Positions 25,904 to 47,809 of a stretch of DNA of 48,151 nucleotides are shown piece by piece. This DNA comes from Deltaproteobacteria bacterium. GTDB lineage: Bacteria; Desulfobacterota; GWC2-55-46; UBA9637. A program made the position numbers and the translations under genes. The notes under the pieces were generated by a model, which was given only the letters and a program-made list of their open reading frames with translations, ran no database searches and had not been told where the DNA came from. The number at the start of each line of letters is the position of its first letter. The first letter of the stretch is position 1. The stretch spans positions 1-48,151 of the forward strand of contig JACQEJ010000096.1 in NCBI GenBank assembly GCA_016200645.1, read 5' to 3'.

Positions 25904-25913
25904 AGGAGAAATA

Positions 25914-25987
25914 GGCTGAGGGCTGATGGCTGAAGGAAGAATAATTTTTGCTTCTATCTACAGCCTAATTTTCTTCAGCCTTCAGTC
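25914..25987. repeat. Intergenic mirrored hairpin (GGCTGAAGG words) between pheS and pheT
   Basis: Left arm ggctgagggctgatggctgaagg, right arm cagcctaattttcttcagccttcagtc. Confidence 0.85.
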
Positions 25988-25990
25988 TTT

Positions 25991-27363: not shown

Positions 27364-27418
27364 ATATTTGAAACTCCTTTCTGTATAATTTAGACTTTAG
27401 AGATTATATTTTAATACA

Positions 27419-27512
27419 GGTTGAGGTTAAGATTAAGGTTAAGAGGCTAAAAGATTAAGAGGTTTAAAACCTTTTCACCTTTTTGCCTTTTCATCTCTTA
27501 ACCTTAACCTGT
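27419..27512. repeat. Mirrored hairpin (GGTTAAG words) between rpmI and rplT
   Basis: Left arm ggttgaggttaagattaaggttaagaggctaaaagattaagagg, right arm aaccttttcacctttttgccttttcatctcttaaccttaacc. Confidence 0.85.
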
Positions 27513-27520
27513 TTTTTTTA

Positions 27521-27718
27521 CTACCCATACGGCAGCAGCTTTTTTATCTGGTCATGATTTGCCTTTTCAACATATACGGCCTTTCTCATAGTCCGCGATG
27601 TCCTTGCGGAATTGGACAATAAGAGATGCCTGCGGCCTGCCTTTGACCGCTTTAGCTTCCCTGTGCCAGTAATGCGGAACCTTTTTGCAGCGCCGCTGTT
27701 TGTCTTCATCTTTGGCAT
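27521..27718 (-). CDS. rpmI: 50S ribosomal protein L35
   Basis: MPKMKTNSGAAKRF. GGAGG RBS upstream of the ATG at 27718. The longer ORF start at 27751 is rejected. Confidence 0.9.
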   Translation of the reverse strand: MPKMKTNSGAAKRFRITGTGKLKRSKAGRRHLLLSNSARTSRTMRKAVYVEKANHDQIKKLLPYG

Positions 27719-27735
27719 AGTTTCCTCCCTTTTTA

Positions 27736-27802
27736 AAGTTTCAAGTTGCAAGATTCAAGTTTCAAGTCTTTACTTACAACTTGCAACTTGTGACTTGCAA
27801 CT
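27736..27802. repeat. Mirrored heptamer hairpin (AAGTTGC/TTCAAGT words) between infC and rpmI
   Basis: Left arm aagtttcaagttgcaagattcaagtttcaagtc, right arm acttacaacttgcaacttgtgacttgcaact. Confidence 0.85.
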
Positions 27803-27803
27803 A

Positions 27804-28316
27804 TTATTTCCCTGCCGGGGCGATCACCATAGTCAGGCTTTTCCCCTCCATGCGCGGGTGTTGTTCTACCACGCCTTTATCTTTGATTATATCTGCCACC
27901 CTTTTAAGCATTTCCCTTCCGAGATCAATATGGGCCATCTCTCTTCCCCTGAATACAATGGTAATCTTTGCCTTATCTCCGTCAGCCAAAAACCTTTCTA
28001 TATGCCGCATCTTAAATTGAAAATCATGTTCATCTGTTCCTGACCGCAGTTTGACTTCTTTCAGATGGATGACGGTCTGTTTCTTTTTTGCCTCGTGCGC
28101 CCGCTTGCTCATCTGGTATTTATATTTTCCATAATCCATGATCCTGCACACCGGAGGATTGGCATTGGGCGATATTTCCACCAGGTCTAAGCCCGCTTCT
28201 TCCGCCAGTTTTATACCATCCCGCGGCGCCATGATGCCCAACTGTTTTCCCTCCTGGTCAAGCACCCTTACCTGCGGCGCCCGTATCCATCTGTTTATTC
28301 GTGTATGATCTTTTAT
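27804..28316 (-). CDS. infC: Translation initiation factor IF-3, non-canonical ATA start
   Basis: Conserved IF-3 N-terminus IKDHTRINRWIRAPQVRVLDQEG lies upstream of the first GTG/ATG. GGAGG 28328-28324 is 7 nt before the ATA at 28316-28314, and no canonical start occurs in frame there. Confidence 0.8.
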   Translation of the reverse strand: MKDHTRINRWIRAPQVRVLDQEGKQLGIMAPRDGIKLAEEAGLDLVEISPNANPPVCRIMDYGKYKYQMSKRAHEAKKKQTVIHLKEVKLRSGTDEHDFQFKMRHIERFLADGDKAKITIVFRGREMAHIDLGREMLKRVADIIKDKGVVEQHPRMEGKSLTMVIAPAGK

Positions 28317-28340
28317 AACACCACCTCCGTTTTAGAAATA

Positions 28341-28383
28341 GTGAGCAGTAAAAACTGCTCACTGTTCACTGCTTACTGTTCAC
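28341..28383. repeat. Hairpin plus CACTGTT heptamer tract at the thrS 3' end
   Basis: gtgagcag-taaaaa-ctgctcac, then tgttcactgcttactgttcac. The last ThrS codons (VNSKQ*) are repeat-encoded. Confidence 0.8.
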
Positions 28384-30285: not shown

Positions 30286-30348
30286 GTCAGTTGAAAAAGA
30301 TTGAGCTTACGCATAAAAATAACAAAAGGCATCAACCCTGTAGAAAAT

Positions 30349-30417
30349 GTAGCGTTGGGGTTTATCCCCAACGATTTCCGTTGCCGCGCCCAGAGGGCAC
30401 CCGGGGCAACGCTACTT
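30349..30417. repeat. GC-rich REP-like element (family P3) with alternative pairings in the tRNA-Val/thrS spacer
   Basis: gtagcgttg pairs with caacgctac. There are also an internal ttgggg/ccccaa hairpin and a gttgcc/ggcaac pairing. The core 20-mer 30384-30403 recurs inverted at 40272-40291. Confidence 0.75.
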
Positions 30418-30570
30418 TAAAATAGGGATGACACCTTTTGAATTTTAATCCTGCAAAATCCTTCTCCGTTGTTTAATGTAGCTGCCCAATCGGGGCGCCC
30501 ATTGCAGCGCAATGGGTCGGGCGTATTCAAAAACGCCGATAAATCGGCAAACTACCATGCTGTTTTGAAA

Positions 30571-30646
30571 TGGTAGGCACGGGCGGTCTCGAACCGCCGA
30601 CCTCTACCGTGTCAAGGTAGCGCTCTAACCCCTGAGCTACGCGCCT
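30571..30646 (-). tRNA. tRNA-Val (anticodon GAC)
   Basis: Hand-folded cloverleaf: AGGCGCG acceptor, GCTC/GAGC D stem, CTACC-TTGACAC-GGTAG anticodon arm, GGCGG-TTCGAGA-CCGCC T arm, encoded CCA; 76 nt. Confidence 0.9.
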
Positions 30647-30678
30647 GAAAACTATTAAGGCAAAAACAAGCAAAAAGA

Positions 30679-30706
30679 ATTTTATCACAAAGGACAAGAC
30701 TGTCAA
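30679..30706 (-). promoter_or_regulatory. Sigma70-like promoter upstream of tRNA-Val (and possibly thrS-infC-rpmI-rplT-pheST)
   Basis: On the minus strand: TTGACA (30706-30701), 16-nt spacer, TAAAAT (30684-30679). About 30 nt upstream of the tRNA 5' end. Confidence 0.45.
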
Positions 30707-30782
30707 GGAAATTATTGAAGAATATCAAAGAGATGTCTGGGGTTTGATTTTCCTGCGCTTATTTTTCAGGGAGAAGGAAATA

Positions 30783-33605: not shown

Positions 33606-33619
33606 CCAGAGGGCTGCCC

Positions 33620-34009
33620 CTACTGTTCACAGTTTGAAGTTCTGTGCAGATGGTTTTCTATGGTCTGTAAAAATGACTTTATATTTATCGGCTTTGCAAT
33701 ATAATCATTAAATCCCTCCTTTAAAAAATCTTCCCGGTCGCCTTTCATCGCATGGGCTGTTAATGCAATGATGACAATATTATTTGCCGAGGAATGTTCC
33801 CGCACCCTGCGGGCAACTGTAACCCCGTCTATTTTAGGAAGCTGAATGTCAAGAAGCACCAGGTCCGGCGCCTCAGTCAGCGTTTTTGCAAGCCCCGTTT
33901 CGCCATCCATGGCCTCCATTACCGTATATCCTTGCGAGAGGAGGAGGTCGCGGAAAAGCTCCATATTCTGTTCATTGTCTTCGACTATTAAAACTTTTTT
34001 CCCGGCCAT
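33620..34009 (-). CDS. Single-domain response regulator (CheY-like receiver)
   Basis: KVLIVEDNEQN..DLVLLDIQLPKIDG..ALTAHAMKGD; 129 aa. Confidence 0.9.
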   Translation of the reverse strand: MAGKKVLIVEDNEQNMELFRDLLLSQGYTVMEAMDGETGLAKTLTEAPDLVLLDIQLPKIDGVTVARRVREHSSANNIVIIALTAHAMKGDREDFLKEGFNDYIAKPINIKSFLQTIENHLHRTSNCEQ

Positions 34010-34026
34010 TCTACACTCCTGAAAAT

Positions 34027-34079
34027 ACCGTAAGTCGTAAGTCGGAAGTAGTTACCACTTACTACTTACAACTTACTGT
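34027..34079. repeat. Mirrored heptamer hairpin (CGTAAGT words) between kinase and regulator genes
   Basis: Left arm cgtaagtcgtaagtcggaagtagt, right arm accacttactacttacaacttactg. Overlaps the kinase stop. Confidence 0.85.
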
Positions 34080-37000
34080 TTTTGTATGCCGCAACCCTGT
34101 CTCCGCCTATCCCCCTGGCTTCTGCCAGCGCCTTGCGGGCCGCTGTCATAAATCCTTCCAGGTTATGGGCATCATCAAGATATGTCGCCACCCCAACGCA
34201 CGCGCTTATCTTTCCTCCGGGCTGGTTTTCCGCATTGTAAAAAGGGTAACTCTCAATAATAGTTTTGAATCTCTTTGCCAGCTGCAGGGCAGGGGATTTT
34301 GGCGTATTGGGGAGGAGTATCGCCAGCTCATCCCTCCCGTATCTCACTGCCGTATCATAACCCCGGAGTGTCTTTTTTATCAGCTCCGCTGTCTTTCTCA
34401 GCACGGCATTGCCGTGAAACTCTCCATTTCTGCCGATATACCCAGGAAGGTCGTCTATAGCTATCATCAAGAGGGAGCATGATTGTTTGTATCTGTCCAC
34501 CCTCTTTATCTCCTGACCCAGCCTGATATTCAGATAACGGTGATTAAAAAGCCCGGTAATCTCATCCACCAGTCCCGCCCTTTTCGGGTAGAGGTATTCC
34601 AGCTCCCTTATCTGCTCTACCAGATATTCTTTTGAGAAAGAGCCCCGCTGGATAACCCGGTCAATGTATCCCATAACCTTAAGCCTTTCGTCAATCTCCA
34701 TCTCCTTTTCAGTCAGGAGAAATACAGGTATTCCATGGGTTGCCGGGGTGGTTTTTAATTTATGTATGATATCAAAACTGCTGATGCCGTCGTCCAGGCC
34801 GTTAAACATTATATCAATGATGATAATATCCGGTTTGGCAACCAGGGCAAGCTCAATGCCTTCCCCCCCGCTCTTCACGCTTGATACGGAAAACCCTTCG
34901 ACTTCTAATGTTGAGGTTAAAAGTTTTACCATCTCCTCATCTTTCTCTATCAGGAGGATGCTGGCGGGTTGTCTCGATTTTCTGAACATGGGTCTGAATT
35001 CATTGAGCCTTTGAATAAGCCTGGCGCCGTCCACAGGTTTTATGAGATAATCCGCCGCGCCGAGGACAAAACCAAGCTCTTTGTTATCTATGATTGAATT
35101 TATGATGACAGGAATATCTTTTGTCTCCTCGCCGCTCTTTAATGTCTGCAGCACCTCCCAGCCGTCTTTGTTGGGGAGCATGATATCAAGGGTTATGGCA
35201 AAGGGCTTTAACACCCGCGCCTTCTTAACGGCGTCATTTCCGTCAAAGGCATGGGCAACAGAGTAGCCTGCCTTTACCAGATGGATGGTGATAAGCTCGG
35301 ATGTGGGAGGGTCATCCTCCACCACCAGCACCAGAGGCGCATTTGCTTTACCATCACACCAACCAGGTTGGTGTGATGGTAAATCCTGCAAATGCCCCTC
35401 AACAACCGGCAGAGGATGGCTGATGGCAGAGGCTTTAGGCTGAGATCCTTGAAAAGCATCGGAGGCGGCCATCGGCAGGACAAAGCCGAAGGTAGAACCC
35501 TGACCGAACCGGCTTTCAGCCCATATCATCCCGCCGTGGAGCTCCACCAGTCTTTTGGTCAGCGCAAGGCCTAGTCCCAGCCCCTCGTGCCTTCTGGAAT
35601 AACTCCCGTCCACCTGTTCAAACTCCTCAAAGAGCCGTTCCATATCATTCGGTTTTATACCGATGCCGGTATCAATAACTGAAATCTTTAGCCATGAAGC
35701 CGGAAACGGCGGACTGGCTGCAGAAAAGGATTTTCCCGATCCTCCGCTTCCTGCTTCCCACATCCCGGCTTGAAGAATAACTTTGCCATTCTGAGGGGTA
35801 AATTTGATTGCATTGCTTAAAAGATTGTAGAGTATCTGCTTGAATTTTATCCCGTCTGCCGTTATCTCCGGCAGGTCCGGGTTTAATTGTAATTCAAGGG
35901 TTACCCCATGTTTATTAGCCAGCGGCTGCACAATGCCCAGCACTTCATTCACGATGGCTGAAAGGGGGAAAGTGGAATAATCCAGGGTCATCTTGCCCGC
36001 CTCTATTTTTGCGATATCCAGGATATTATTGATAAGCTGCAGGAGATGCCTGCCTGATGTCAGGACATTATTTATATATCTCGCCTGTTTATCATTCAGG
36101 CTGCCAAAGGTATCGGTCAAGAGAATCTCTGAAAAACCTAAGATAGAATTGAGCGGTGTTCTCAACTCATGGCTCATATTGGTGATAAACTGGTTTTTGA
36201 CCTTGTCCGACCTTTCCAGTTGTTTATTGGCCTTCTCCAACTCCATTGTCCTTTCCAGTATCCTCTCCTCGAGCCTGTCGTTAATCTCTTTCAGCTCCCT
36301 GTTCTTTTTATCTATTTCGAGCCGTATCTTTTTTTCTTCCGTTATATCCTTGCTGATGCCAACGGTTCCGATCACCTTTCCCGTCCAATTGCCCAGCTGG
36401 GAAAGGGTAAGGCTTATGTCAACGATCCTCCCGTCCTTTGCCACAAGCTGGGTTTCATAATTGGAGATACTATCTTCCTTTTCCAGCTTGCTCAGTATGT
36501 TATTCCTTTCATCCCTGTTGCGGTACAGTGTGGATACAGCTCTGCCGATGACCTCATCTCTCCTATATCCAAGAATTGTTTCTGCCCCCCGGTTAAATTC
36601 AACAATCTTTCCCTCGGTATCGGTAGTGATGATGACATCAGCCGAGTCATTTAAGACATTTTTCAGATAATCCTTTGCCTCAAGGAGGGCGTCGTTTTTA
36701 TCCTCCAATTCTTTCAGAAGCTGAAATTTTTCTATGGCAAAGGTGGCCTGGGCTCCGAGCAGACTCAGGAAAGATATTTCGTTTGAGGTAAACCTGCGTG
36801 GTTTAAAATCATCTATGTAGAGGATGCCGATGATGCGGCTGTTGGCAAGAAGCGGTATGGCGATGAGAGACCTTATGCCTTCATCAAGCATGAGCGGGTT
36901 ATTGAACAGAGGCTCTTTTTTTATATCAGATATGACAACGGGCTTTCTTGCGCCGAGGATGTGGCTGGTCATGCCGTTTGGCCTTGCCTTCCATCTGTCA

Positions 37001-37548
37001 ACCTCAAGAAATTTTTGAGAAAGGCCTTTGCTGGCCGCAATCCTTAACTCTCCGGAGCCTGCGTCGTACAGCGCAATGCTTCCTGCGGGCGCATTTACAA
37101 ACTCGGTGGATTTCTTTATTATGATATCCAATACATCTTCCAGATGGTGGGCGGAGGCAAGTATTACACCGATATTATATAGCTCCTTTAACTCATTTAC
37201 ATTTTTATTTAAATCTTCCTGATCCTTTTTAAGTCTGCTTAAAAGCTCCCATACAAGCTTTGCGCTCATCCCCTCTACAATTTCCGCCTTAAGCCTTCTC
37301 TTTTTTCTGATACCCTTTGAGACGGCATCGCTGCCGGTAACATTAATGACGATATCTATATCTTTTATCTTGAGAAGTTCGTTGTAATCTTTTGCGGCGG
37401 GTATATTGAAATGTCTTGCCAGTTTTATCCCTGGGGCCTTTTCATCTTTATCAGCGATGCCGATCACCTCAATATCAGGCATATCTTGTAAAAGGGCAAG
37501 CAATGCATAACCGCCCTTGCCTGCGCCTATGATAGCTATCTTTTTCAT
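34066..37548 (-). CDS. Multidomain sensor: Rossmann-like N-domain, GAF, PAS, HisKA, HATPase_c, two receiver domains, degenerate GGDEF
   Basis: IAIIGAGKGG N-terminus. H-box MSHELRTPLNS. DTGIGI and GLGLGLA ATPase boxes. Receiver domains LVVEDD..LDIMLPNKDG and ILLIEKDEE. C-terminal RGYDTAVRYGRDELAILL in place of GGDEF; 1160 aa. Confidence 0.85.
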   Translation of the reverse strand: MKKIAIIGAGKGGYALLALLQDMPDIEVIGIADKDEKAPGIKLARHFNIPAAKDYNELLKIKDIDIVINVTGSDAVSKGIRKKRRLKAEIVEGMSAKLVWELLSRLKKDQEDLNKNVNELKELYNIGVILASAHHLEDVLDIIIKKSTEFVNAPAGSIALYDAGSGELRIAASKGLSQKFLEVDRWKARPNGMTSHILGARKPVVISDIKKEPLFNNPLMLDEGIRSLIAIPLLANSRIIGILYIDDFKPRRFTSNEISFLSLLGAQATFAIEKFQLLKELEDKNDALLEAKDYLKNVLNDSADVIITTDTEGKIVEFNRGAETILGYRRDEVIGRAVSTLYRNRDERNNILSKLEKEDSISNYETQLVAKDGRIVDISLTLSQLGNWTGKVIGTVGISKDITEEKKIRLEIDKKNRELKEINDRLEERILERTMELEKANKQLERSDKVKNQFITNMSHELRTPLNSILGFSEILLTDTFGSLNDKQARYINNVLTSGRHLLQLINNILDIAKIEAGKMTLDYSTFPLSAIVNEVLGIVQPLANKHGVTLELQLNPDLPEITADGIKFKQILYNLLSNAIKFTPQNGKVILQAGMWEAGSGGSGKSFSAASPPFPASWLKISVIDTGIGIKPNDMERLFEEFEQVDGSYSRRHEGLGLGLALTKRLVELHGGMIWAESRFGQGSTFGFVLPMAASDAFQGSQPKASAISHPLPVVEGHLQDLPSHQPGWCDGKANAPLVLVVEDDPPTSELITIHLVKAGYSVAHAFDGNDAVKKARVLKPFAITLDIMLPNKDGWEVLQTLKSGEETKDIPVIINSIIDNKELGFVLGAADYLIKPVDGARLIQRLNEFRPMFRKSRQPASILLIEKDEEMVKLLTSTLEVEGFSVSSVKSGGEGIELALVAKPDIIIIDIMFNGLDDGISSFDIIHKLKTTPATHGIPVFLLTEKEMEIDERLKVMGYIDRVIQRGSFSKEYLVEQIRELEYLYPKRAGLVDEITGLFNHRYLNIRLGQEIKRVDRYKQSCSLLMIAIDDLPGYIGRNGEFHGNAVLRKTAELIKKTLRGYDTAVRYGRDELAILLPNTPKSPALQLAKRFKTIIESYPFYNAENQPGGKISACVGVATYLDDAHNLEGFMTAARKALAEARGIGGDRVAAYKNSKL
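35347..35383. repeat. Perfect palindrome related to family P1 (CACACCAA..TTGGTGTG core), in frame in the kinase linker
   Basis: tttaccatcacaccaaccaggttggtgtgatggtaaa. Encodes LPSHQPGWCDGK between the ATPase domain and the first receiver. Confidence 0.85.
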
Positions 37549-37551
37549 CCG

Positions 37552-37845
37552 TCAGGCCTCTTTTACCCCGTTGCGCTCGTCTATTCTCTGCTGGAAGAGA
37601 CGGGTTGCGAGTTGCCAGTTGCGAGTTCTTACCCGCAACCCGTAACCCGCAACTTTCAACCCCTTCTCGTTCAAAACAACCATATCGTTTGTGTCAGCAA
37701 GAAAATTTTTATGGCAAAACAAATTTTGCAGTGCTTCTTTACCCGACCCCAGTGCCTTCGTATTTTGCATTGCAAGGCAGGTTTCCAGAGACTTCATTGC
37801 AGCACGTTCAGTGGGGTCTTGGCTCAGGGAAATTTTGATCCACAC
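37552..37845 (-). CDS. Hypothetical protein (doubtful); partly encoded by a repeat hairpin
   Basis: 97-codon ORF ending 3 nt before the kinase start. No recognisable motif. Codons KVAGYGLRVRTRNWQLAT come from hairpin 37601-37654. Confidence 0.3.
   Translation of the reverse strand: MWIKISLSQDPTERAAMKSLETCLAMQNTKALGSGKEALQNLFCHKNFLADTNDMVVLNEKGLKVAGYGLRVRTRNWQLATRLFQQRIDERNGVKEA
37601..37654. repeat. Mirrored heptamer hairpin (GTTGCGA words)
   Basis: Left arm gggttgcgagttgccagttgcgagtt, right arm acccgcaacccgtaacccgcaact. Confidence 0.85.
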
Positions 37846-37936
37846 TGCCGTCCTAATGGTGCTGTGCTAATGTGTTTTGCCATAAAAATTTTCTTGCTGA
37901 CACAAAGGATTTATATTTCTCAAAAAATTTTAACAA

Positions 37937-38725
37937 TTATCCTCTATGGGTGTCAAGGTGAAATCTTTTCTTTAATTCACGGAGAATCATGTTTGCATCC
38001 TCGTTCAGTTTATTCGCCGATTTCAGATTTTCAGAATCGCCTTTGCCAAAAACATACGCTGCGTATAAGCGCGTAGCTTTTGATTTGAGCGATATAGCCT
38101 TTTTCAGCATTTGATGCCATTCTGCCCTTGCTTTTGGGGGTTCTATGGAATTGAGCATCTGAATCATTATTACATAATGCTGGCGAAGTTTCTTCAGTTT
38201 TTCAGGATTCAACCGCGCGGTTCTTTTCATGCTTATCATTTTCGATATATCGTTTGTCCTCTTGCTGATGAACATTGCCTCCCTTATTATTTCAGGAATT
38301 TTTGTTGTAAATTTTTGCTCGTCAAAAACTACCGGCGCTTGTTCTTTTGGATTGGATAAAAGCACGGCTGCCTGAAGCCTCACGCGGTAGAGCCTTTCCT
38401 TATCTTCCTTGCCTTCGTTTAATATCTTGTATGTCTTTACATAACCCTTGCATTTTGCGACTATCTCATCTTTTACCGCCGCGTAACTCTCCACTTCCGT
38501 CTCTGCATTTACAAATACCCCTTTTGCCTGCTCCACTGCAATCCTCAGTCCGTCATCAATAGCAGACCTCCTTGCATCGGCTACATCGCCTTTGATGGTT
38601 CCAACGCCGTCCGCTGTTACGGTAATGGCCTCATCTTCTCCGCTGCTTTCTTGCTCTACACCATAGACAGTCAATGAGCATAAATTCATAAACACAAATA
38701 AGGAAAAAACAAATAATCTTTTCAT
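37937..38725 (-). CDS. Secreted hypothetical protein with N-terminal signal peptide
   Basis: MKRLFVFSLFVFMNLCSLTVYG hydrophobic leader; 262 aa. No family confidently recognised. Confidence 0.65.
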   Translation of the reverse strand: MKRLFVFSLFVFMNLCSLTVYGVEQESSGEDEAITVTADGVGTIKGDVADARRSAIDDGLRIAVEQAKGVFVNAETEVESYAAVKDEIVAKCKGYVKTYKILNEGKEDKERLYRVRLQAAVLLSNPKEQAPVVFDEQKFTTKIPEIIREAMFISKRTNDISKMISMKRTARLNPEKLKKLRQHYVIMIQMLNSIEPPKARAEWHQMLKKAISLKSKATRLYAAYVFGKGDSENLKSANKLNEDANMILRELKKRFHLDTHRG

Positions 38726-39011
38726 ACATTACCCTCCCTGATTTTTTTATTAGCATTTTATCTCTTTTTCGGCAGTAATTGCCAGCGCTATTTTTGAGCG
38801 GCCTACAAACAGTATGCTCCTACGGAGCAAAAGACAAAAAGCCATATCAAAGCCTCGTAAGATGTTGAAAATTGAGAATTGTTTTTTTCTATGCTTATCA
38901 TTTCAACTTTTTTACGAAAGAGCCCTAATATCTTAATTATATTAGGCCTTTTTACTTATTTAATAATTGTTAAGTTTGCAAGTTAAGATATTTCTGTGGC
39001 AAACTTTTATC

Positions 39012-39040
39012 TTGACAAATATACTAAAGTATTATACAAG
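39012..39040 (+). promoter_or_regulatory. Possible promoter for the cysM block
   Basis: TTGACA 39012-39017. The -10 is ambiguous: TATACA with a 15-nt spacer, or TACAAG with 17 nt. Confidence 0.3.
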
Positions 39041-39061: not shown

Positions 39062-39091
39062 CCCCCACACCAAAAGATTTTGGTGTGGGGG
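39062..39091. repeat. Palindromic element family P1 in the cysM 5' leader
   Basis: cccccacaccaaaagattttggtgtggggg, about 30 nt upstream of the cysM ATG. Confidence 0.9.
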
Positions 39092-39119: not shown

Positions 39120-40073
39120 ATGGGCAGGCATCCTGCTTTTGATTCACAAAAAGTTATATGGGATTTAAGGCAGCCGCGGCAAACTATCGTTGAAATGGTC
39201 GGCAATACGCCGCTGGTTAAGATAAACAGGATTACCAAACACCTCCCGGAATCGGTAGAGATTTACGCAAAGGTTGAGGCGTATAATCCAGGCGGGTCTG
39301 TAAAAGACAGGGCTGCCAAGCGGATGATTGAGGATGCGGAAAAGAGCGGCAGGCTTACAAAGGATAAGATAATCCTTGATTCAACATCCGGCAACACCGG
39401 GATTGCATACGCATGGATCGGCGCGGTAAAGGGTTACGGCGTTGAGCTGGTGGTGCCTCAAAATGTGAGCGAAGAGAGGAAGAAGATACTCAGGGCATTC
39501 GGCGCAAAGGTGGTATTTTCAAATCCTCTGGAGGGTTCGGACGGCGCTATAAGGCTTGCATGGAAACTCTATGTAGACAATCCGGATAAATACTGCAAGC
39601 TTGACCAGTATAATAACCCATCCAACCCTCAGGCCCATTATGATACAACAGGCCCAGAAATCATAGAGCAGACGGACGGCAGAATCACCCATTTTGTGGC
39701 AAGCATTGGAACCAGCGGCACTATCATGGGCACGGGGAGGAGAATGAAGGAATATAATCCTGCCATACAGGTGATACAGGTGGAACCTGCAACCCCTCTC
39801 CACGGTCTGGAAGGATTAAAGCATATGGCTACCTCCATTGTCCCGGGCATATATCATCCGGAAAAATTGGACGGCAAGGTATCCGCGCCAACGGAAGAGT
39901 CGTATGACATGGCAAAGAGGCTTGCGCGGGAGGAAGGGCTTTTTGTGGGCCAGTCGTCCGGCGCCGCCATGTGGGGCGCCCTGGAGGCGGCAAAGAATCT
40001 GAAGGAGGGTCTTATCGTGGTTTTATTCCCCGACGGGGGAGACAGGTATCTTTCTACGAGGCTGTGGGAGTAA
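39120..40073 (+). CDS. cysM: Cysteine synthase, CysM-like PLP enzyme
   Basis: NPGGSVKDRAA (PLP lysine), STSGNTGIAYAW and GTSGTIMG motifs; 317 aa. Confidence 0.85.
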   Translation: MGRHPAFDSQKVIWDLRQPRQTIVEMVGNTPLVKINRITKHLPESVEIYAKVEAYNPGGSVKDRAAKRMIEDAEKSGRLTKDKIILDSTSGNTGIAYAWIGAVKGYGVELVVPQNVSEERKKILRAFGAKVVFSNPLEGSDGAIRLAWKLYVDNPDKYCKLDQYNNPSNPQAHYDTTGPEIIEQTDGRITHFVASIGTSGTIMGTGRRMKEYNPAIQVIQVEPATPLHGLEGLKHMATSIVPGIYHPEKLDGKVSAPTEESYDMAKRLAREEGLFVGQSSGAAMWGALEAAKNLKEGLIVVLFPDGGDRYLSTRLWE

Positions 40074-40153
40074 AACAGTCTAAAAGTTGTTAGTCTACAA
40101 GCCTACAAGTTTTAAAACTTTTAGTCTAACGACTTGTAGGCTCTTAGGCTGTA
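40072..40153. repeat. 82-nt structured element, copy 1 (upstream of the JAMM gene)
   Basis: aaaacagtctaaaagttgttagtctacaagcctacaagttttaaaacttttagtctaacgacttgtaggc... Near-identical to 40610-40692. Confidence 0.9.
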
Positions 40154-40160
40154 TTTAATT

Positions 40161-40622
40161 ATGCTTTCTTTTCCTCAAAATATTTACAACGAAATAATCA
40201 ACCATGCCAAAGAGACGTATCCCTACGAGGCGTGCGGCGCATTGGCGGGAAAACAAAAACAAGGGTCAGGGCGGGTGCCCTCTGGGCGCGGTCAAGGGTC
40301 AAGAACCGAAAAGGATGTTTTGAAATTTTATAGTATGGAGAATATCAACAAGGACAGGGCGAATGACCGGTATGAGATAAATCCTAAAGAATTATTGAAG
40401 ATTGAAAAAGAGGCAAAAGCAAACGGTCTGCAGGTAATTGGTTTCTATCATTCCCATCCCGATCACCCTGACAGGCCTTCGGCCTTGGACAAGGAAAGGG
40501 CATGGCCATTGTATTCGTATGTAATTATTGCCGTTCATAACGGAAGAGATGTTTCCGTAAAGTCCTGGACATTTGAAGATGAGAGAGAACCTTTTAGAGA
40601 AGAGGAGGTAAAAACAGTCTAA
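40161..40622 (+). CDS. mec: JAMM/MPN+ metallopeptidase (Mec-like)
   Basis: EACG..., HSHPDHPDRPSALD (JAMM HxHx7Sx2D motif). 153 aa, including a repeat-derived insertion. Confidence 0.8.
   Translation: MLSFPQNIYNEIINHAKETYPYEACGALAGKQKQGSGRVPSGRGQGSRTEKDVLKFYSMENINKDRANDRYEINPKELLKIEKEAKANGLQVIGFYHSHPDHPDRPSALDKERAWPLYSYVIIAVHNGRDVSVKSWTFEDEREPFREEEVKTV
40272..40291. repeat. Family P3 core 20-mer, in frame inside the JAMM gene
   Basis: cgggtgccctctgggcgcgg is the exact reverse complement of 30384-30403. It is flanked by GGTCAAG-type words. The insert encodes about QGSGRVPSGRGQGS. Confidence 0.9.
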
Positions 40623-40692
40623 AAGTTGTTAGTCTACAAGACTACGAGTTTTAAAACTTTTAGTCTAACGACTTGTAGACTTTTAGTCTGTA
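40610..40692. repeat. 82-nt structured element, copy 2 (downstream of the JAMM gene)
   Basis: About 6 differences from copy 1 by eye. Supplies the last JAMM codons and the stop (aaaacagtctaa). Confidence 0.9.
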
Positions 40693-40693
40693 G

Positions 40694-41521
40694 TTGGCTA
40701 TGAACTTCACCGAAGAACAGATAGAGCGATACTCAAGACATATAATTCTTCCGGAGGTGGGGGGCAAAGGCCAGGCGGAGCTTCTTAAGTCAAAGGTCTT
40801 TGTGCTGGGCGCTGGCGGGCTTGGCTCGCCGGCGCTCTTGTATCTTGCCGCTGCGGGCGTGGGAACCATCGGCATAGCCGATGGCGACTGCGTTGATTTA
40901 TCTAACCTGCAAAGGCAGATAATCCATGATACGGAAAAGGTCGGCACGCACAAGGCCGTATCTGCAAAAAAGTCCATTGAGGCCCTGAATCCTGATGTCA
41001 AGGTTGTAACCTACAAGGAGAGGCTTAATACAGATAACATAAGAGGCATCATAAGAGATTACGATGTGCTTCTGGACGGAAGCGACAATTTTCCTACACG
41101 ATATTTGATGAACGATGCGGCGTTTTTTGAAAAAAAGACGCTGATATCAGGGAGTATGTTCAGGTTTGACGGGCAGGCGACCATATTCAAACCGCATGAA
41201 GGCCAGCCGTGCTATCGGTGCCTTTATCCGGAGCCGCCGCCAAAAGGCCTTGTGCCAAGCTGTCAGGAGGCGGGGGTTTTAGGGGCCCTGGCAGGTGTGG
41301 TTGGAGTCATACAGGCAGTGGAAACGATAAAAGAACTTTTGGGGATTGGCAACACACTGGCAGGCCATCTTCTTATTTTTGACGCCCTGGGCATGAACTT
41401 CAGAAAGGTCAAGGTGAGGAGAGACCCGGAATGCGCCTTGTGCAGCGAAAAAGCAATCATTAAAGAGCTTATTGCTTACGAAGAGGCGTGTGAGATACAA
41501 GCGGCGAAGTGTGGGGCCTAA
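40694..41521 (+). CDS. moeB: MoeB/ThiF-family E1-like adenylyltransferase
   Basis: RYSRHIILPEVG, LGAGGLGSP nucleotide loop, CYRC and CALC zinc pairs. 275 aa, no rhodanese domain. Confidence 0.85.
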   Translation: MAMNFTEEQIERYSRHIILPEVGGKGQAELLKSKVFVLGAGGLGSPALLYLAAAGVGTIGIADGDCVDLSNLQRQIIHDTEKVGTHKAVSAKKSIEALNPDVKVVTYKERLNTDNIRGIIRDYDVLLDGSDNFPTRYLMNDAAFFEKKTLISGSMFRFDGQATIFKPHEGQPCYRCLYPEPPPKGLVPSCQEAGVLGALAGVVGVIQAVETIKELLGIGNTLAGHLLIFDALGMNFRKVKVRRDPECALCSEKAIIKELIAYEEACEIQAAKCGA

Positions 41522-41525
41522 GAAT

Positions 41526-41641
41526 ACAGGCAAGGGGCGATAGGCAAAGAAATTCTAAATTCTAAACTCAAAATTTTAAATTTGAAATTTGTAATTTGGA
41601 TATTAGAATTGCTAATCCTATAGCCCATAGCCTATAGCCTA
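41526..41641. repeat. Two-tier mirrored element: outer GGCAA(G/T)(G/A)GG / CCTATAGCC words, inner AATTCTA-type heptamers
   Basis: acaggcaaggggcgataggcaa..aattctaaattctaaactcaaaattttaaatttgaaatttgtaatttgg..ttagaatt..cctatagcccatagcctatagcc. Confidence 0.85.
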
Positions 41642-41652
41642 TTTTGATTTCT

Positions 41653-42891
41653 ATGAAACAAACAAAGACATACCTCCACAACCCCGGTTATTTGAAGATT
41701 GACCTTATGCTCAAAGGCATCAGGGTTGATAAAGAGGTTCTTAAAAAAGCAAACATGGATAAATGCCGCAATCTTTTTGATGTTGCGTGCGGTATAGATG
41801 TTATCCTGCCGCACAATACATGGGTAACAGTCCCGTATATTGAAGACTTTACCAAAGATTCGCCTTATGAGCTTATGGAAAGGGATGGAAGATTTTTTAT
41901 AACCCATGGCGATGAATCGGTTCAGGTATCAGTAGTTCCAACGCCGGAGTTCTATACATTGAAAACAACCACGGGCATTCAATTATCCAGGATAGGCCTT
42001 GTCCACGGCGGATATGTGGCGATAACACCCGCGACGCAGTGCGACTTCTTTAATAAGGCCATAGAATGCAGATATTGCGCGGGGAATCTTGATATCTATA
42101 GCAATAAAGGGAGGGTTTATAGCGTTGAAGATGTATTGGAGACCGTCGAGGCCGCGTATAAAGAAGGAAAGGCGGAGATTGTCTATATATCCATAGGTTT
42201 TTCAGATACCCCTGACGGCGGCATAGAGTTCTTGAAGCCGTATATACAGGCGATAAAAAAACACTTTAATACCCTTGTTGCCGTGGAAGCCCTCCCACCA
42301 AAGGAAAACAGATGGGTAGATGAAACTTACGCAGTAGGCGCTGATTCTGTCTTATATAACCTGGAGATATTCAATCCGAAATTATTTGATGAGATATGCC
42401 CCGGCAGGGCAACGCTTATTGGGAGGGAAAGGTATCTGGACGCCCTGCGATACGCAACAACCATATTCCCGAACGGCACCGTAGCATCCCATCTTATTGT
42501 CGGACTCGAACCGATAGAGTCAACCATGTCAGGCATAGATTATTTTACCAACATCGGTGTGGTGCCTATACTGCCTATATACAGGCCGTCCTTAGGGGCA
42601 AAACTTTCTCAATATAAGATGCCTGCCACTAAAGATATTGCCCCGCTGTATGGTCATCTCTACAGGGCGGTTACCGCAAATAAGATAAATACAACCTGGG
42701 TCAGGGATATAAGCATTGTGACAACGCCGCTGGAGGGAAGATTCTTTGTCGGCGACGAGGCCAGGATGAAGACATGGATGCAGAATTTTTATAAATCAAG
42801 GTTGGGATTAAAGGCAGCATGGAGTCTCGCAACCCTGCGAAGGAAGCTGAAGGTCAAGGTAGGGGAATCGTCAGCGCACCGGGACAAATAA
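41653..42891 (+). CDS. Radical-SAM-like TIM-barrel protein with non-canonical CX8CX2C motif and an N-terminal domain of unknown function
   Basis: CDFFNKAIECRYC (42040-42078). GADSVLYNLEIF and SHLIVGLEP resemble BioB/ThiH-type strands. ATG at 41653 is preferred over the TTG at 41644, which abuts the repeat. Confidence 0.6.
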   Translation: MKQTKTYLHNPGYLKIDLMLKGIRVDKEVLKKANMDKCRNLFDVACGIDVILPHNTWVTVPYIEDFTKDSPYELMERDGRFFITHGDESVQVSVVPTPEFYTLKTTTGIQLSRIGLVHGGYVAITPATQCDFFNKAIECRYCAGNLDIYSNKGRVYSVEDVLETVEAAYKEGKAEIVYISIGFSDTPDGGIEFLKPYIQAIKKHFNTLVAVEALPPKENRWVDETYAVGADSVLYNLEIFNPKLFDEICPGRATLIGRERYLDALRYATTIFPNGTVASHLIVGLEPIESTMSGIDYFTNIGVVPILPIYRPSLGAKLSQYKMPATKDIAPLYGHLYRAVTANKINTTWVRDISIVTTPLEGRFFVGDEARMKTWMQNFYKSRLGLKAAWSLATLRRKLKVKVGESSAHRDK

Positions 42892-42906: not shown

Positions 42907-43010
42907 CCCCGTTAGACCTAAAAGCAAGAGGCTTTGCTTCAATCGATTGGTACGGAGAACAGTTTAAAAGTGAAGTGGGCAGCAATTATTTTAAAGGAGG
43001 TCTAACGGGG
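42907..43010 (+). promoter_or_regulatory. Long-range 13-bp helix sequestering the RBS/start of the permease gene
   Basis: ccccgttagacct (42907-42919) is perfectly complementary to aggtctaacgggg (42998-43010). The latter overlaps the GGAGG SD and the first base of the GTG start. Confidence 0.45.
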
Positions 43011-44437
43011 TGAGAATAGAGATAGACCGGCGCCCCATCTGGCTCATCATTATCTTAAGAAGTTTTAGGCCTATATTTTTTCTGACCATAGGGCTCATCT
43101 TCTTTTACCTGATCAACCTTCCTACACCGGACGGCTTGACAATCCAGGGACAGCGGGCAATTGCTCTGTTTACCGTATGCCTCATTTTATGGGTTACCGG
43201 CATGCTGCCGCTTGCCATAACCAGTCTTCTGGCGATTGTAACAGTTCCTCTGCTGGGGATACTGGATAAGAAAGAGACCTATGCGCTGTTCGGCAATGAG
43301 GCGGTCTTTTTTATCTTAGGGGCATTTATACTTTCCGGCGCCGTGATGCATTCGGGGCTGTCCGGCCGCATAGCTCTGGCGATAATGAACAGATTTGGAG
43401 GCACCCCGAAGGGGCTGCTTGCTTCCATATTCCTCCTGGCTTCGGCTTTGTCATTTTTCATGTCAGAACATGCGGTAGCGGCTATGCTCTTTCCCATTGT
43501 GCTGGACATTGCAAAGGGTTTGAATCTGAGGCCCGGCAGATCAAATTATGCAAAGTCTCTTTTTCTTGCCCTCGCGTGGGGGTGTATTATCGGAGGCGTT
43601 GCGACATTTCTCGGAGGGGCGCGGGTTCCGCTTGCCGTCGGTATGCTGAAGGAGGCAACAGGCATAACCATTGATTTCCTGGAATATACCGTCATCGTGT
43701 TCCCGACTGTGGTGATGCTGCTCGTGATAGGTTATCTTGGGCTGACAAGATTTTTCCCCCCGGATATAGAAGACATGCATCTGGCAAAAACCGTATTTGA
43801 AAGAAAGATGAAAGAGATGGGAAAGATAGGATATCTGGAATATGCAGTAGGCGCTGTCATGGCGGCAACAATACTTTTCTGGCTGTTTTTCGGCAGAAGC
43901 CTGGGCATAGCGAATATAGCCATTGTCTCGGTGGTCGGGCTTTTCATATTAAAGCTGGTTAGATGGAAGGACATTGAGGAGTATGTGAACTGGGGCATAA
44001 TCCTGATGTACGGCGGCGCAATAACATTGGGCGCGGCAATGGAAAAGTCCGGGGCGGCGGCATGGATGGCCAATGCGGCAATCGGAAATGGCATAAGCAG
44101 CCCTCTTGTAGTTATAGCAATATTTTCTCTTTTGACAATTCTCTTAACGGAAGGCATGAGCAACGCCGCTGTCATAGCAATCCTGCTGCCCGTCGGCATT
44201 GGCATGGCCTCCCGATTCAATATGGAGCCGAGGCTTATTACCTATGCCATAGCAGTTCCGGCAGGACTGGCATTTTGTTTTCCAATGTCAACGCCTGCAA
44301 ATGCCATTGCTGTATCATCAGGTTACATAACGACAAAGGATATGGCAAAGGCAGGCATTGTCATGATGATTTTGGCATGGCTTGTATTTAATCTGACGGC
44401 GCGATTTTATTGGCCGATAATAGGCATCAGGCTATAG
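43010..44437 (+). CDS. DASS/SLC13-type anion permease (ArsB/NhaD superfamily), putative sulfate/anion symporter
   Basis: 475 aa, about 12 hydrophobic segments. GTG start 9 nt after GGAGG. The sulfate role is inferred only from neighbours. Confidence 0.75.
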   Translation: MRIEIDRRPIWLIIILRSFRPIFFLTIGLIFFYLINLPTPDGLTIQGQRAIALFTVCLILWVTGMLPLAITSLLAIVTVPLLGILDKKETYALFGNEAVFFILGAFILSGAVMHSGLSGRIALAIMNRFGGTPKGLLASIFLLASALSFFMSEHAVAAMLFPIVLDIAKGLNLRPGRSNYAKSLFLALAWGCIIGGVATFLGGARVPLAVGMLKEATGITIDFLEYTVIVFPTVVMLLVIGYLGLTRFFPPDIEDMHLAKTVFERKMKEMGKIGYLEYAVGAVMAATILFWLFFGRSLGIANIAIVSVVGLFILKLVRWKDIEEYVNWGIILMYGGAITLGAAMEKSGAAAWMANAAIGNGISSPLVVIAIFSLLTILLTEGMSNAAVIAILLPVGIGMASRFNMEPRLITYAIAVPAGLAFCFPMSTPANAIAVSSGYITTKDMAKAGIVMMILAWLVFNLTARFYWPIIGIRL

Positions 44438-44505: not shown

Positions 44506-44970
44506 ATGAAAAACATACTTCTCATACTCTCAACCTCAAGAACCTCGCAGGATGCGATTGAGTATGCCGTGGGTCTCGCAAAAAAGGAGAAGGCAAAGCT
44601 TGTCGTCCTCTACATAATCGAGACCGAGCTTACCAATGAGGTCTTTGATAAATTTACCGACATTGGCTTTATCGGCGACAAACCGTCAACAGAGCTTACC
44701 GAGGCCATTATGCGGGAATACCGCCAGCGCGGCTACGAGGAGATGGGAAAGGTTCAGATAAGGGCAATGGAAGAAAATGTTGATTTCGACGCAGTTACAA
44801 CGCAGGGGGATTTTGTTGAAAAGGCCGTAGAGACAATTGAGCGGTATAAGATTGATACTGCCGTTGCGATTAAACGGAAGCGCTCCGCATTCTGGAAGTA
44901 TTTCTCAAAATCCATGGTTGATGAACTCATAGAGCAAGCGCCGTGCAAGGTGGAGGTGTTTGAGGAATAA
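44506..44970 (+). CDS. Universal stress protein family
   Basis: MKNILLILSTSRTSQDAIEYAVGLAKKEKAKLVVLYIIE. The ATG at 44506 is preferred because the longer ORF start (44410) lies in the repeat. Confidence 0.75.
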   Translation: MKNILLILSTSRTSQDAIEYAVGLAKKEKAKLVVLYIIETELTNEVFDKFTDIGFIGDKPSTELTEAIMREYRQRGYEEMGKVQIRAMEENVDFDAVTTQGDFVEKAVETIERYKIDTAVAIKRKRSAFWKYFSKSMVDELIEQAPCKVEVFEE

Positions 44971-45070: not shown

Positions 45071-45682
45071 ATGACCCAACAAAAAGCTACCAACATCAAA
45101 TGGCATCACGGAAAGATTACGAAAGAAGACAGGATAAAGCTGATGAAGCAGAAAGGAGTAACCATCTGGCTCACCGGTCTGTCCGGCTCAGGCAAATCAA
45201 CCATTGCGGTTGAACTTGAGCATGCCCTCCTGGAAAACGGTCATCAGGCGTATATACTGGATGGCGATAATATCCGCCACGGCCTGAATAAAAATCTCGG
45301 CTTTTCGCCGGAAAACCGCTCTGAAAATATACGGCGCATCGGCGAAGTGGCAAAGCTATTTACCGATGCAAATATCATTACTATAACAGCATTCATATCC
45401 CCATACAGACAGGACAGGGAAAATGCCAGGAAACTCCAGAAGGATGGTGAGTTTATAGAGATATATGTGAAGTGTCCGTTGGAAGTGTGCGAGCAGAGAG
45501 ATACGAAAGGGTTGTATAAAAAGGCGCGGGCTGGCGAAGTCAAAGAATTTACCGGCATATCAGCGCCGTATGAAGAGCCGTTAAATCCTGAAATAACCAT
45601 TGACACATCAAAGCTGTCTGTTGAGGAATCGACAAAGGAGATAATAGGCTATCTGGAGAAGAAGGGGTATGTGAAGTTTTAA
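45071..45682 (+). CDS. cysC: Adenylylsulfate (APS) kinase
   Basis: [15 protein letters not shown]-loop, [17 protein letters not shown] and FISPYR motifs; 203 aa. Confidence 0.95.
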
Positions 45683-45759: not shown

Positions 45760-46536
45760 ATGAAAATAGATGATATTACAAAGAACACACTTGACAAACT
45801 CAATGCCATGCCTGCTGAAGGGCTTATCACATGGGCATTTGAAAACTTTGGGGCAAGATGCGCCATCGGCACGAGTTTTCAGTTAACCGGCACGGTAATT
45901 GTAGACATAGCCGGCAGGCATTTTAAGAAATTCAGGGTGTTTACCATTGATACGCTTCGGCTCCATCCTGAAACATACGAGGCAATCAAGGCTTCGGAAA
46001 AAAAATATGGTTTGACTATTGAAAGATTTACGCCGAATGAGGGCACATTAAAGAGCATGATTGAAAGATTCGGCGAGTATCTCTTTTTCATGGATAAGGC
46101 AAAGCAGGAATACTGCTGCTTTGTGAGAAAGGTTGAGCCGAACAGGCGAGCGCTTAAAACCGTTGATGTCTGGATAACGGGTTTAAGAAAAGACCAGTCG
46201 GATTACAGAAAGACTGTGCCAAAGGCGTCTCTTATCGAAGAAGACGGAAGGAAGATTCTCAAGCTCGCTCCCCTGGCGGACTGGGGCATGGAAGAGATAT
46301 GGCGGCATATACGGGAGAACAATCTCCCCTATAACAAACTCTTTGACATGGATTACGACAGCATAGGCTGCGTCATATGCTCAACACCGCTGGTCAAGGG
46401 CGAACCGCCCCGCTCCGGCAGGTGGAGATGGTTCAGCAAGGTGGATGAAAAAAAGGAGTGCGGGATACATACAAATACAGGCAATAGGCAAGAGGCAATA
46501 GGCAATAGAAAATTAAAAAATCAAAAGTCAAAATGA
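45760..46536 (+). CDS. cysH: Phosphoadenosine/adenosine phosphosulfate reductase, Fe-S (APS-reductase-like) type
   Basis: CC pair (EYCCFVRKVEP), CxxC (GCVICS), SGRWRW and ECGIH motifs. The C-terminal 21 codons are repeat-encoded. Confidence 0.9.
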   Translation: MKIDDITKNTLDKLNAMPAEGLITWAFENFGARCAIGTSFQLTGTVIVDIAGRHFKKFRVFTIDTLRLHPETYEAIKASEKKYGLTIERFTPNEGTLKSMIERFGEYLFFMDKAKQEYCCFVRKVEPNRRALKTVDVWITGLRKDQSDYRKTVPKASLIEEDGRKILKLAPLADWGMEEIWRHIRENNLPYNKLFDMDYDSIGCVICSTPLVKGEPPRSGRWRWFSKVDEKKECGIHTNTGNRQEAIGNRKLKNQKSK

Positions 46537-46648: not shown

Positions 46649-47809
46649 ATGGTAGGTTTAATCGAGCCGCATGGCGGCAAACTTGTCAACAGGATTCTGG
46701 AAGGAAAAGAAAGGGAAGATCTTGCGGAAAAGGCGCAAAAACTAAAAAAGGTGCATCTCAATGAGAGAGAGATCTCCGATATTGAGATGATCGCAATAGG
46801 CGCTTTCAGCCCGCTGGAAGGGTTCATGAAAAAGGATGACTACCACAGCGTCATGGACAATATGAAGCTGTCCGATGGCCTTCCATGGACAATACCGATA
46901 ACCTTATCGGTCACAAAGGATGAGGCAAAGAATCTCAAAGAAGGGGAAGAAGTAAGCCTCGTCAACAAGGAAGGCGAGATGCTGGCGGTTCTCCATATTG
47001 AAGAAAAATTCAGTCACGATAAAGAAAAAGAAGCTGTTCAGATCTACGGCACAAAGGATATGGCTCACCCCGGGGTGGCAAAGGTTTTTGAGATGGGCGA
47101 TACGCTTCTTGGAGGCAGTGTATCGGTCATACACAGGGTTAAGCAGGAAAACTTTTTAAAATATAGACTTGATCCAAAAGAAACCCGTCAGCTTTTTAAG
47201 GAAAAGGGATGGAAGAGGGTTGTCGGCTTTCAAACAAGAAACCCGATTCATAGGGCGCACGAATATATCCAGAAGTGCGCACTGGAGGTGGTAGACGGGC
47301 TGATGATTCATCCTATTGTCGGCGAAACAAAAGGAGACGATGTGCCTGCTGCTGTGCGTGTGAAGTGCTATGAGGTTTTGCTGGAAAATTATTATCCCAA
47401 AGACAGGACCGTGCTTGTTGTCAATCCTGCGGCCATGAGATACGCAGGCCCAAAAGAGGCGATATTCCATGCGCTCATAAGGAAAAACTACGGCTGCACC
47501 CACTTTATTGTCGGGAGAGACCATGCGGGCGTGGGCAACTACTACGGCACCTTTGATGCGCATTACATATTTGACGAGTTTGACCCTCTGGAGATCGGCA
47601 TAACACCGATGTTTTTCGACCACACCTTCTACTGTAAAAAATGCGAAGGCATGGCGTCGTATAAAAGCTGCCCGCACGATTCCAGCCACCATGTCACCCT
47701 TTCCGGCACAAAGGTAAGGGAGATGCTGCGGGCAGGAACGATGCCCCCGCACGAGTTTTCAAGGCCAGAAGTCGCAAAGGTTTTGATAGAGGCGATGAGG
47801 GCAACATAA
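46649..47809 (+). CDS. sat: Sulfate adenylyltransferase (ATP sulfurylase)
   Basis: [11 protein letters not shown] and GRDHAGVG motifs; 386 aa. Confidence 0.95.

Follow-up and report, generated by a model that had tools for sequence, protein, structure and literature searches.

Within a complete 48151-bp contig (hereafter the window) from an NCBI metagenome-assembled genome (MAG) labelled "Deltaproteobacteria bacterium", we studied a gene cluster in which a CysM-type cysteine synthase, a JAMM peptidase and an E1 enzyme stand next to sulfate-activation genes. We consider it likely that positions 39.0-47.8 kb form one transcription unit of a two-unit system leading from sulfate to cysteine and homocysteine by way of a protein thiocarboxylate. 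The sulfur-carrier protein and the sulfite reductase, both missing from the window, are almost certainly encoded on another contig of the same genome, as judged from accession order and protein similarity. The locus belongs to the known CysO/CysM/Mec/E1 and MetM/MetO thiocarboxylate systems, with its carrier unit relocated: a quirk of gene order, not a new pathway.

The place of the carrier is best seen in related genomes (loci with L numbers below), long contigs of which were reached through homologues of a radical-SAM-like protein of the window and by a scan of GTDB. In 22 related genomes, genes for a MetM-like enzyme, a sulfite reductase, TusA, a ThiS-family carrier and a NIL protein lie directly upstream of cysM. 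Loci L004-L007 display the full contiguous order: MetM-like, sulfite reductase, TusA, ThiS, NIL, CysM, JAMM, E1, radical-SAM-like, DASS permease, Usp, CysH and Sat. In the contiguous loci the MetM-like protein, a threonine synthase (ThrC) homologue, measures 417 aa, the sulfite reductase (NIR_SIR plus ferredoxin) about 318 aa, ThiS 93 aa and NIL 78 aa. The GTDB scan was made with one genome per species and the ThrC-like protein as query, and the operon proteins were mapped on the 80 loci returned. The contiguous arrangement was present in 20 further species representatives, all of the same clade, and the ThrC homologue stood beside a ThiS carrier in all 80 related loci with downstream sequence available. 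At its N-terminus this homologue has a Cys4 segment that resembles a zinc ribbon and weakly matches NinF. The ThrC-like/ThiS pair, usually accompanied by NIL, is far more widespread, being found in Nitrospirales, Verrucomicrobia, Brocadiales and Acidulodesulfobacterium. Three further lineages, one Acidulodesulfobacterium-like, one in Nitrospirales and one around L043, also have CysM, JAMM, E1 and ThiS side by side, but in shuffled order. Since the linkage recurs in at least four gene orders, we infer a functional coupling of CysM, JAMM and E1 with the ThrC-like/ThiS core.

A carrier block of the same kind is present in the submission that contains the window. The proteins of the window bear consecutive accessions in gene order (MBI3753682-MBI3753693), and a separate contig of 10657 bp encodes a MetM-like "threonine synthase" (MBI3753376.1, P0278; thrC 302 bits), a small AsrC-like sulfite reductase (MBI3753377.1, named "4Fe-4S binding protein"; NIR_SIR and Fer4) and a 93-aa carrier (MBI3753379.1, P0142, named "MoaD/ThiS family protein"; ThiS 68 bits). 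Judging by synteny, MBI3753378 would be TusA and MBI3753380 would be NIL. The three identified proteins come 306-309 accessions before CysM (MBI3753685), inside a genome that starts more than 1000 proteins earlier, as MBI3753684.1 has the locus tag HY266_06550 and would be about the 1310th gene. Moreover, the relatives rank identically by identity to the window proteins and to MBI3753376, MBI3753377 and MBI3753379: MAG JACRNJ01 first, GWC2_42_11 next, then the rest. Accession order, locus-tag count and congruent identities make a strong argument for a shared MAG, albeit one that is not a direct reading. The sister MAG JACRNJ01 likewise has the two halves on different contigs. Its locus L003, the closest relative of the window (CysM 88% and E1 93% identity), also lacks the upstream carrier block, while its MetM-like gene is on contig L030 and its ThiS (MBI5327399) on a third contig, within one accession run.

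The carrier itself is CysO-like. It aligns over its full length, at 51% identity (E 2e-23), with CysO of Mycobacterium tuberculosis as seen in chain C of 3DWG, a structure of CysM and CysO in complex. Its C-terminus reads ...IIPAIAGG-VN, that is, with two residues past the GG.

Four screens of the window gave no carrier. There was no credible GG-ending protein among the stop-to-stop open reading frames (ORFs) of at least 25 aa, and tblastn with the relatives' ThiS, TusA, NIL, sulfite reductase and MetM found nothing significant in the window, the sole match at E<0.01 being that of the MetM query to cysM, because both are PALP-family enzymes. A profile hidden Markov model (HMM) trained on 120 CysO-like ThiS proteins reached an E-value of only 0.055 at best against the 1343 six-frame window segments of at least 20 aa, and Pfam assigned none of the 91 small ORFs at 38.6-43.1 kb to a ThiS, MoaD, Urm1 or ubiquitin family. 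An antisense ThiS-like tblastn match at 42105-41920 (E 0.03) was dismissed: it lies opposite the radical-SAM-like gene, conserved at 58-82% identity, and was missed by the HMM. For sulfite reductase, none was detected with Pfam among 20 further large ORFs at 1-33.6 kb or by tblastn against the window, the latter alone covering the other ORFs. What Pfam recognised among these 20 ORFs was housekeeping genes (dnaE, accA, pheA/tyrA/aroA, cmk, ispH, pheST, thrS and ppc), and the two genes directly upstream of cysM encode a histidine kinase/diguanylate cyclase (its NCBI name) and a hypothetical lipoprotein-like protein.

The genes of the window unit are the following:

39120-40073, plus strand: cysM, CysM-type pyridoxal phosphate (PLP)-dependent cysteine synthase, 317 aa, MBI3753685.1; PALP 231 bits.
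40161-40622, plus strand: Mec-like JAMM/MPN+ metallopeptidase, 153 aa; Prok-JAB 87 bits.
40694-41521, plus strand: ThiF/MoeB/UbaA-type E1 adenylyltransferase, 275 aa; ThiF 267 bits over residues 13-248.
41644-42891, plus strand: radical-SAM-like gene (412-aa protein MBI3753688.1 from 41653); NF045502 and Radical_SAM.
43010-44437, plus strand: DASS-family Na+/anion symporter, presumed sulfate permease; Na_sulph_symp 204 bits, TIGR00785 257 bits.
44506-44970, plus strand: universal stress protein (Usp) domain protein, with the start set where similarity to relatives begins; Usp 46 bits.
45071-45682, plus strand: cysC, adenylyl-sulfate kinase, MBI3753691.1; APS_kinase 245 bits.
45760-46536, plus strand: cysH, (phospho)adenylyl-sulfate ((P)APS) reductase; PAPS_reduct 130 bits, CC...CxxC and ECGIH motifs.
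46649-47809, plus strand: sat, sulfate adenylyltransferase, MBI3753693.1; ATP-sulfurylase 339 bits and PUA_2.

The longest ORF for Usp begins at 44410, and a tRNA follows sat on the opposite strand. A preliminary description, drawn from the DNA letters, had called the three enzymes, the radical-SAM-like gene directly after them, and the permease, cysC, cysH and sat further downstream, with no mention of Usp. Our ORF map and profile searches reproduced these calls at the same coordinates, in agreement with sequence searches of the PDB. Its assignment of the three enzymes to protein-thiocarboxylate-dependent cysteine synthesis was sound. It was also right that the window holds neither carrier nor sulfite reductase, and that the E1 carries no fused beta-grasp domain. 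To account for the missing carrier it had offered three options, of which a gene elsewhere in the genome turned out to be the correct one. A carrier in the window too small or divergent to be seen is very improbable, with MBI3753379.1 in the same submission. A variant pathway is not supported either: a conventional CysO/ThiS gene and a sulfite reductase gene adjoin the triad in 22 relatives and, by inference, belong to the same MAG, the kind of finding that the description itself had named as refuting such a variant.

The sequences of the three enzymes fit the proposed assignment, with some reservations for CysM. This protein passes the cysKM profile TIGR01136 (353 bits, cutoff 344), narrowly misses the cysM profile TIGR01138 (386 bits, cutoff 394), and is 80-88% identical to those CysMs of relatives that adjoin a CysO-like ThiS. 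Against M. tuberculosis CysM it shows 38% identity over 301 aa, in an alignment consistent in its coordinates with the PDB search. In the JAMM peptidase the motif HSHPDHPDRPSALD is intact, with E23 and HSH-x7-S-x2-D legible in the sequence (E..HSH-x7-S-x2-D), and the PDB entries most similar to it are Mov34/MPN proteins of prokaryotes and JAMM1 of archaea. Of all proteins in the unit it evolves fastest (47% identity to L004/L006, against about 80% for CysM and E1), and it has a Gly/Arg/Ser-rich insertion (QKQGSGRVPSGRGQGSRTEKD) after the region of the active-site glutamate. The E1 matches MoeB and ThiF crystal structures at E about 1e-54. Its single ThiF domain takes up residues 13-248 of the 275-aa protein, and too little sequence is left over for a rhodanese or beta-grasp domain. 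The rhodanese domain is indeed absent, only the C-terminal part of rhodanese-containing models being aligned.

Mechanistically, and by analogy with the systems of M. tuberculosis, Streptomyces and Wolinella, we propose that the DASS permease would take up sulfate, that Sat, CysC and CysH would convert it to sulfite, and that the small AsrC-like sulfite reductase would reduce sulfite to sulfide. In parallel, the JAMM peptidase would trim the two residues past the GG of the carrier, and the E1 would adenylate the exposed C-terminal glycine to give carrier-GG-AMP. Sulfide would then thiolyse the adenylate to carrier-COSH, possibly via a relay, for which TusA is the likely candidate because the E1 has no rhodanese domain. 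On CysM, a PLP-aminoacrylate formed from O-phosphoserine or O-acetylserine would be attacked by the thiocarboxylate to yield carrier-cysteine. This adduct would undergo an S-to-N acyl shift and then be hydrolysed by the JAMM peptidase to cysteine and recycled carrier. Similarly, the MetM-like enzyme would use O-phosphohomoserine to form carrier-homocysteine, from which the JAMM peptidase would release homocysteine.

Several points weigh against this proposal. All catalytic steps are drawn by analogy. Membership of the two contigs in one MAG follows from accession, locus-tag and identity logic, and MAG bins can be chimeric. In this respect, a second small sulfite reductase, P0269 (MBI3755160.1), is encoded on a 3561-bp contig 1475 accessions after the window genes. 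It is 98% identical to the sulfite reductase of L032 (JACPZB01) and may come from the next MAG in the submission, or from a co-binned strain or strain mixture. Finally, in the PDB search the window CysM is closer to the E. coli/Salmonella enzyme (248 bits) than to that of M. tuberculosis (200 bits), it lacks the C-terminal tail of the latter, and its Lys233 aligns with Arg220 of M. tuberculosis CysM, a residue linked to O-phosphoserine specificity. Owing to this E. coli-like similarity, the absent tail and the lysine at the Arg220 position, use of a thiocarboxylate by the window CysM, in preference to sulfide, is putative. On whether this CysM groups with ordinary sulfide-using enzymes, the other refuting condition of the preliminary description, its similarities point both ways: towards E. 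coli CysM in the PDB search, and towards the CysMs beside CysO-like carriers in the relatives.

The same features lend themselves to another explanation, in which CysM would be an ordinary enzyme using sulfide or thiosulfate while the E1 and the JAMM peptidase would serve only the MetM-like/ThiS branch, or other functions of the ThiS/MoaD/SAMP kind, and would have no more than a transcription unit in common with cysM. The bit scores above and the near miss of TIGR01138 speak for it, as does the fact that the core shared most widely across phyla consists of the MetM-like enzyme, ThiS and NIL, often with no CysM adjacent. We regard this explanation as rather unlikely, because four lineages that differ in gene order all keep CysM together with JAMM, E1 and ThiS, mirroring mec-cysO-cysM of M. 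tuberculosis, and because CysO, to which the carrier is 51% identical, was crystallised bound to CysM.

Returning to the two-unit thiocarboxylate system, the DNA before cysM suggests how its halves could be separated. Two elements precede the gene:

39012-39040, plus strand: promoter-like element, TTGACA at 39012-39017 followed by an A/T-rich -10-like TATTATAC.
39062-39091, plus strand: hairpin in the cysM 5' leader, 13-bp stem, 29 nt before the start codon.

The first holds a conserved 12-mer box, TACTAAAGTATT, at 39022-39033. The TTGACA...TAcTAAGGTATT element is also found upstream of cysM in L003, L004, L006, L009, L014, L022, L024, L025, L027 and L031. The 12-mer TACTAAGGTATT lies inside TTGACA...TATTATA and in most contiguous loci is repeated once, 28-38 bp farther downstream (at 28 bp in five loci; pairs at 7353/7381 in L006, 7496/7524 in L004 and 13724/13752 in L022). 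In the window and in L003 the box occurs only once, and with one mismatch. The box is probably an operator for a regulator, and the element as a whole would act as promoter/operator of cysM; no copy of the box turned up ahead of the MetM-like gene. The leader hairpin has a minimum free energy of -28.7 kcal/mol (z = -4.2 relative to shuffled sequences). In relatives the hairpin is shorter (CCCC/GGGG) and directly adjoins the Shine-Dalgarno sequence, and Rfam returned no riboswitch, leader or other family upstream of cysM, leader hairpin included. After NIL, the contiguous loci carry a GC-rich hairpin and a T-run that resemble a terminator. Together with the conserved promoter-like element before cysM, this terminator-like sequence indicates that the two halves are separate transcription units even where they are adjacent, which would explain why a split is tolerated.

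It could be argued that the split is an artefact of assembly or binning and that the carrier block truly adjoins cysM in the chromosome. The contigs of L026, L028, L029, L030 and L032 do break at the block, which suggests that the region is hard to assemble. Nevertheless, such an artefact seems very improbable here: 39 kb of contiguous, unrelated genes precede the window cysM, JACRNJ01 independently has ispH upstream of cysM, and in GWF2_42_12 (L034) it is unrelated membrane-protein genes, instead of cysM, that come after the carrier block. Even harder to credit, and in effect refuted, is a triad that works without a ThiS-like protein, or with one from a divergent micro-ORF of the window, for although the four independent screens of the window were blank, a CysO-like carrier lies 306 accessions away in the same submission, the carrier adjoins the triad in 22 relatives with CysM and E1 about 80% identical to those of the window, and we know of no role for an E1 and a JAMM peptidase without a beta-grasp substrate.

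Within the two-unit system, the NIL protein appears closely tied to the carrier. In the clade of the window the NIL ORF overlaps the stop codon of the carrier gene, the two being translationally coupled, and in a second lineage ThiS and NIL are fused in a single protein of 175-176 aa (L043 3326-3856, L089 7741-8268 and L090 3461-3988). From this overlap and fusion, the gene sequences suggest that the JAMM peptidase would free the carrier from a precursor, as with ubiquitin fusions, and that NIL would work together with the carrier.

The other conserved addition is the radical-SAM-like protein. It exceeds the cutoffs of Pfam Radical_SAM (37.7 bits, cutoff 29.5) and of the variant_rSAM profile NF045502 (208 bits, cutoff 125), and its family comprises about 1466 representative clusters (50% identity, E<=1e-3). 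Among 118 homologues a cluster motif CX8CX2C (C130, C139 and C142), which departs from the canonical CX3CX2C, is invariant, and C249 is 97% conserved. Other spacings of the cluster motif are known within the radical SAM superfamily. An AF2 model (pLDDT 80, pTM 0.81) folds as a TIM barrel, for which the nearest folds in Foldseek are LipA, BioB and LIAS (E 2e-6 to 2e-5; 15-18% identity, query-normalised TM about 0.4), with RlmN and NifB also matched; sequence matches to LipS2 and LipA are weak. Compared with lipoyl and biotin synthases, the protein has the partial TIM-barrel radical-SAM core, but it differs in having CX8CX2C instead of CX3CX2C, no cysteines for an auxiliary cluster, and an orphan N-terminal domain. 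This domain of about 125 aa, modelled alone (pLDDT 80), had no analogue in the PDB (best E 0.34), and the separate model and structure search led us to reject the idea that it is a beta-grasp domain.

Wherever a locus of the clade covers the stretch from the E1 gene to the DASS permease gene, the radical-SAM-like gene lies between them, and in several loci 1-20 bp separate its stop codon from the start of DASS. The second lineage offers an informative comparison. There (L043, L089 and L090) the order is Rrf2, MetM-like, CysM, JAMM, ThiS::NIL, E1, DsrE/F/H-like, radical-SAM-like, DASS, Usp, DsrE2, TusA and Sat, with neither sulfite reductase nor cysH in the clusters. The radical-SAM-like homologues (L043 5569-6684, L089 10001-11080 and L090 5740-6819) occupy the same position just upstream of DASS-Usp and are about 22-31% identical to those of the window's clade, yet they have lost all three cluster cysteines. 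Put differently, CX8CX2C is kept where the cluster has a sulfite reductase and is lost where the relay proteins DsrEFH, DsrE2 and TusA stand instead. Given this loss, the function common to both lineages is probably not radical chemistry and, speculatively, may concern sulfur hand-over or the transporter.

As to the role of this protein, our low-confidence guess is that it assists sulfur delivery or the DASS transporter rather than taking part in core catalysis. On one reading, by analogy with TtuA-type enzymes, a [4Fe-4S] cluster held by three cysteines would leave one iron site open, where sulfide made by the sulfite reductase would be caught for transfer to the carrier adenylate; on another, the protein would be a subunit or regulator of the sulfate transporter. 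It is possible, if somewhat doubtful, that it represents a so far undescribed dedicated component of thiocarboxylate-based sulfur assimilation. In the literature we found no radical SAM or NIL component described for CysO/JAMM clusters.

The sulfate-reduction genes at the end of the unit differ within the clade. Only L003, L024 and L036 have cysC among the relatives. The window cysH is about 35% identical to most relatives' cysH and 72-79% identical to those of L024 and L036, both types retaining the CC...CxxC and ECG(I/L)H motifs; the locus L003 contains no cysH. The gain of cysC in the window, L003, L024 and L036, and the divergent cysH of the window, L024 and L036, suggest that the clade has exchanged its sulfate-reduction module in some members. 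L024 and L036 (GWC2_42_11) combine window-type cysC and cysH with a contiguous locus.

Some further observations concern the surroundings of the unit. In sister L003, cysM begins 387 bp after ispH (7141-7528). In the window, a 16.4-kb block entirely on the minus strand (22600-38950) stands between these two genes and contains a tRNA, pheT, pheS, thrS, a tRNA, ppc, the histidine kinase/diguanylate cyclase gene and the lipoprotein-like gene. A hairpin, GCCCTAATAT...ATATTAGGC (window ~38921-38950), is common to the window and L003 upstream of cysM. Excision of the carrier block from between ispH and cysM was considered and rejected, since the linkage to ispH is common only to L003 and not to the contiguous relatives. 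Further upstream, a low-GC insert at 16200-19600 (0.35 against about 0.46) separates tyrA from aroA. It carries an N6/N4 DNA methylase gene (17202-18152) and an unannotated 449-aa ORF (18149-19498), and probably represents a restriction-modification system; the corresponding site of L003 is occupied by NTP_transf_2/HEPN and other small genes.

Compared with the CysO/CysM/Mec+/MoeZ system of M. tuberculosis, the locus shares a CysM-type PLP enzyme, a JAMM peptidase, a ThiF-family E1 and the linkage to sulfate assimilation, as well as a carrier of 93 aa that is 51% identical to CysO from end to end. Unlike MoeZ, the E1 has no rhodanese domain, and a stand-alone TusA adjoins the carrier instead. 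The carrier extends two residues past the GG and its gene stands apart from cysM; CysM has no C-terminal tail and is closer to the E. coli enzyme. The conserved genes for the radical-SAM-like protein, NIL and the small sulfite reductase with its ferredoxin domain are extra with respect to the mycobacterial system.

The Wolinella succinogenes system of HcyS/HcyD/HcyF/MetY with Sir, reportedly described by Krishnamoorthy and Begley in 2011, is similar: its sulfate-assimilation cluster likewise combines sulfite reductase, E1 and JAMM peptidase with a carrier whose residues after the GG have to be trimmed, and sulfide is taken directly onto the carrier adenylate. The PLP enzymes of our locus, however, are of the CysM and ThrC types, not MetY.

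For a carrier missing beside a CysM-JAMM-E1 triad in a MAG contig, the lesson is that the genome and its relatives should be checked before a new pathway is proposed; the new leads in this locus are the conserved radical-SAM-like and NIL proteins only. On the homocysteine side, the closest parallel is in Streptomyces, where MetM/MetO with Mec and MoeZ turn O-phosphohomoserine into homocysteine by way of a thiocarboxylate (Hasebe et al. 2024, cited in bioRxiv 10.1101/2024.10.14.618325). In terms of that recently described route, our ThrC-like enzyme is the counterpart of MetM, and our carrier that of MetO. As in Streptomyces, a threonine-synthase homologue is encoded immediately beside a ThiS-like carrier (MBI3753376 and MBI3753379); in contrast, the ThrC homologue here has the Cys4 segment, NIL is coupled or fused to the carrier, and one carrier appears to serve both CysM and the MetM-like enzyme in a single gene neighbourhood. 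In this clade of groundwater and sediment "Deltaproteobacteria"/Thermodesulfobacteriota MAGs, all assimilated sulfate sulfur appears to pass into cysteine and homocysteine via a single CysO/MetO-like carrier, a route that would join two pathways characterised separately in actinomycetes.

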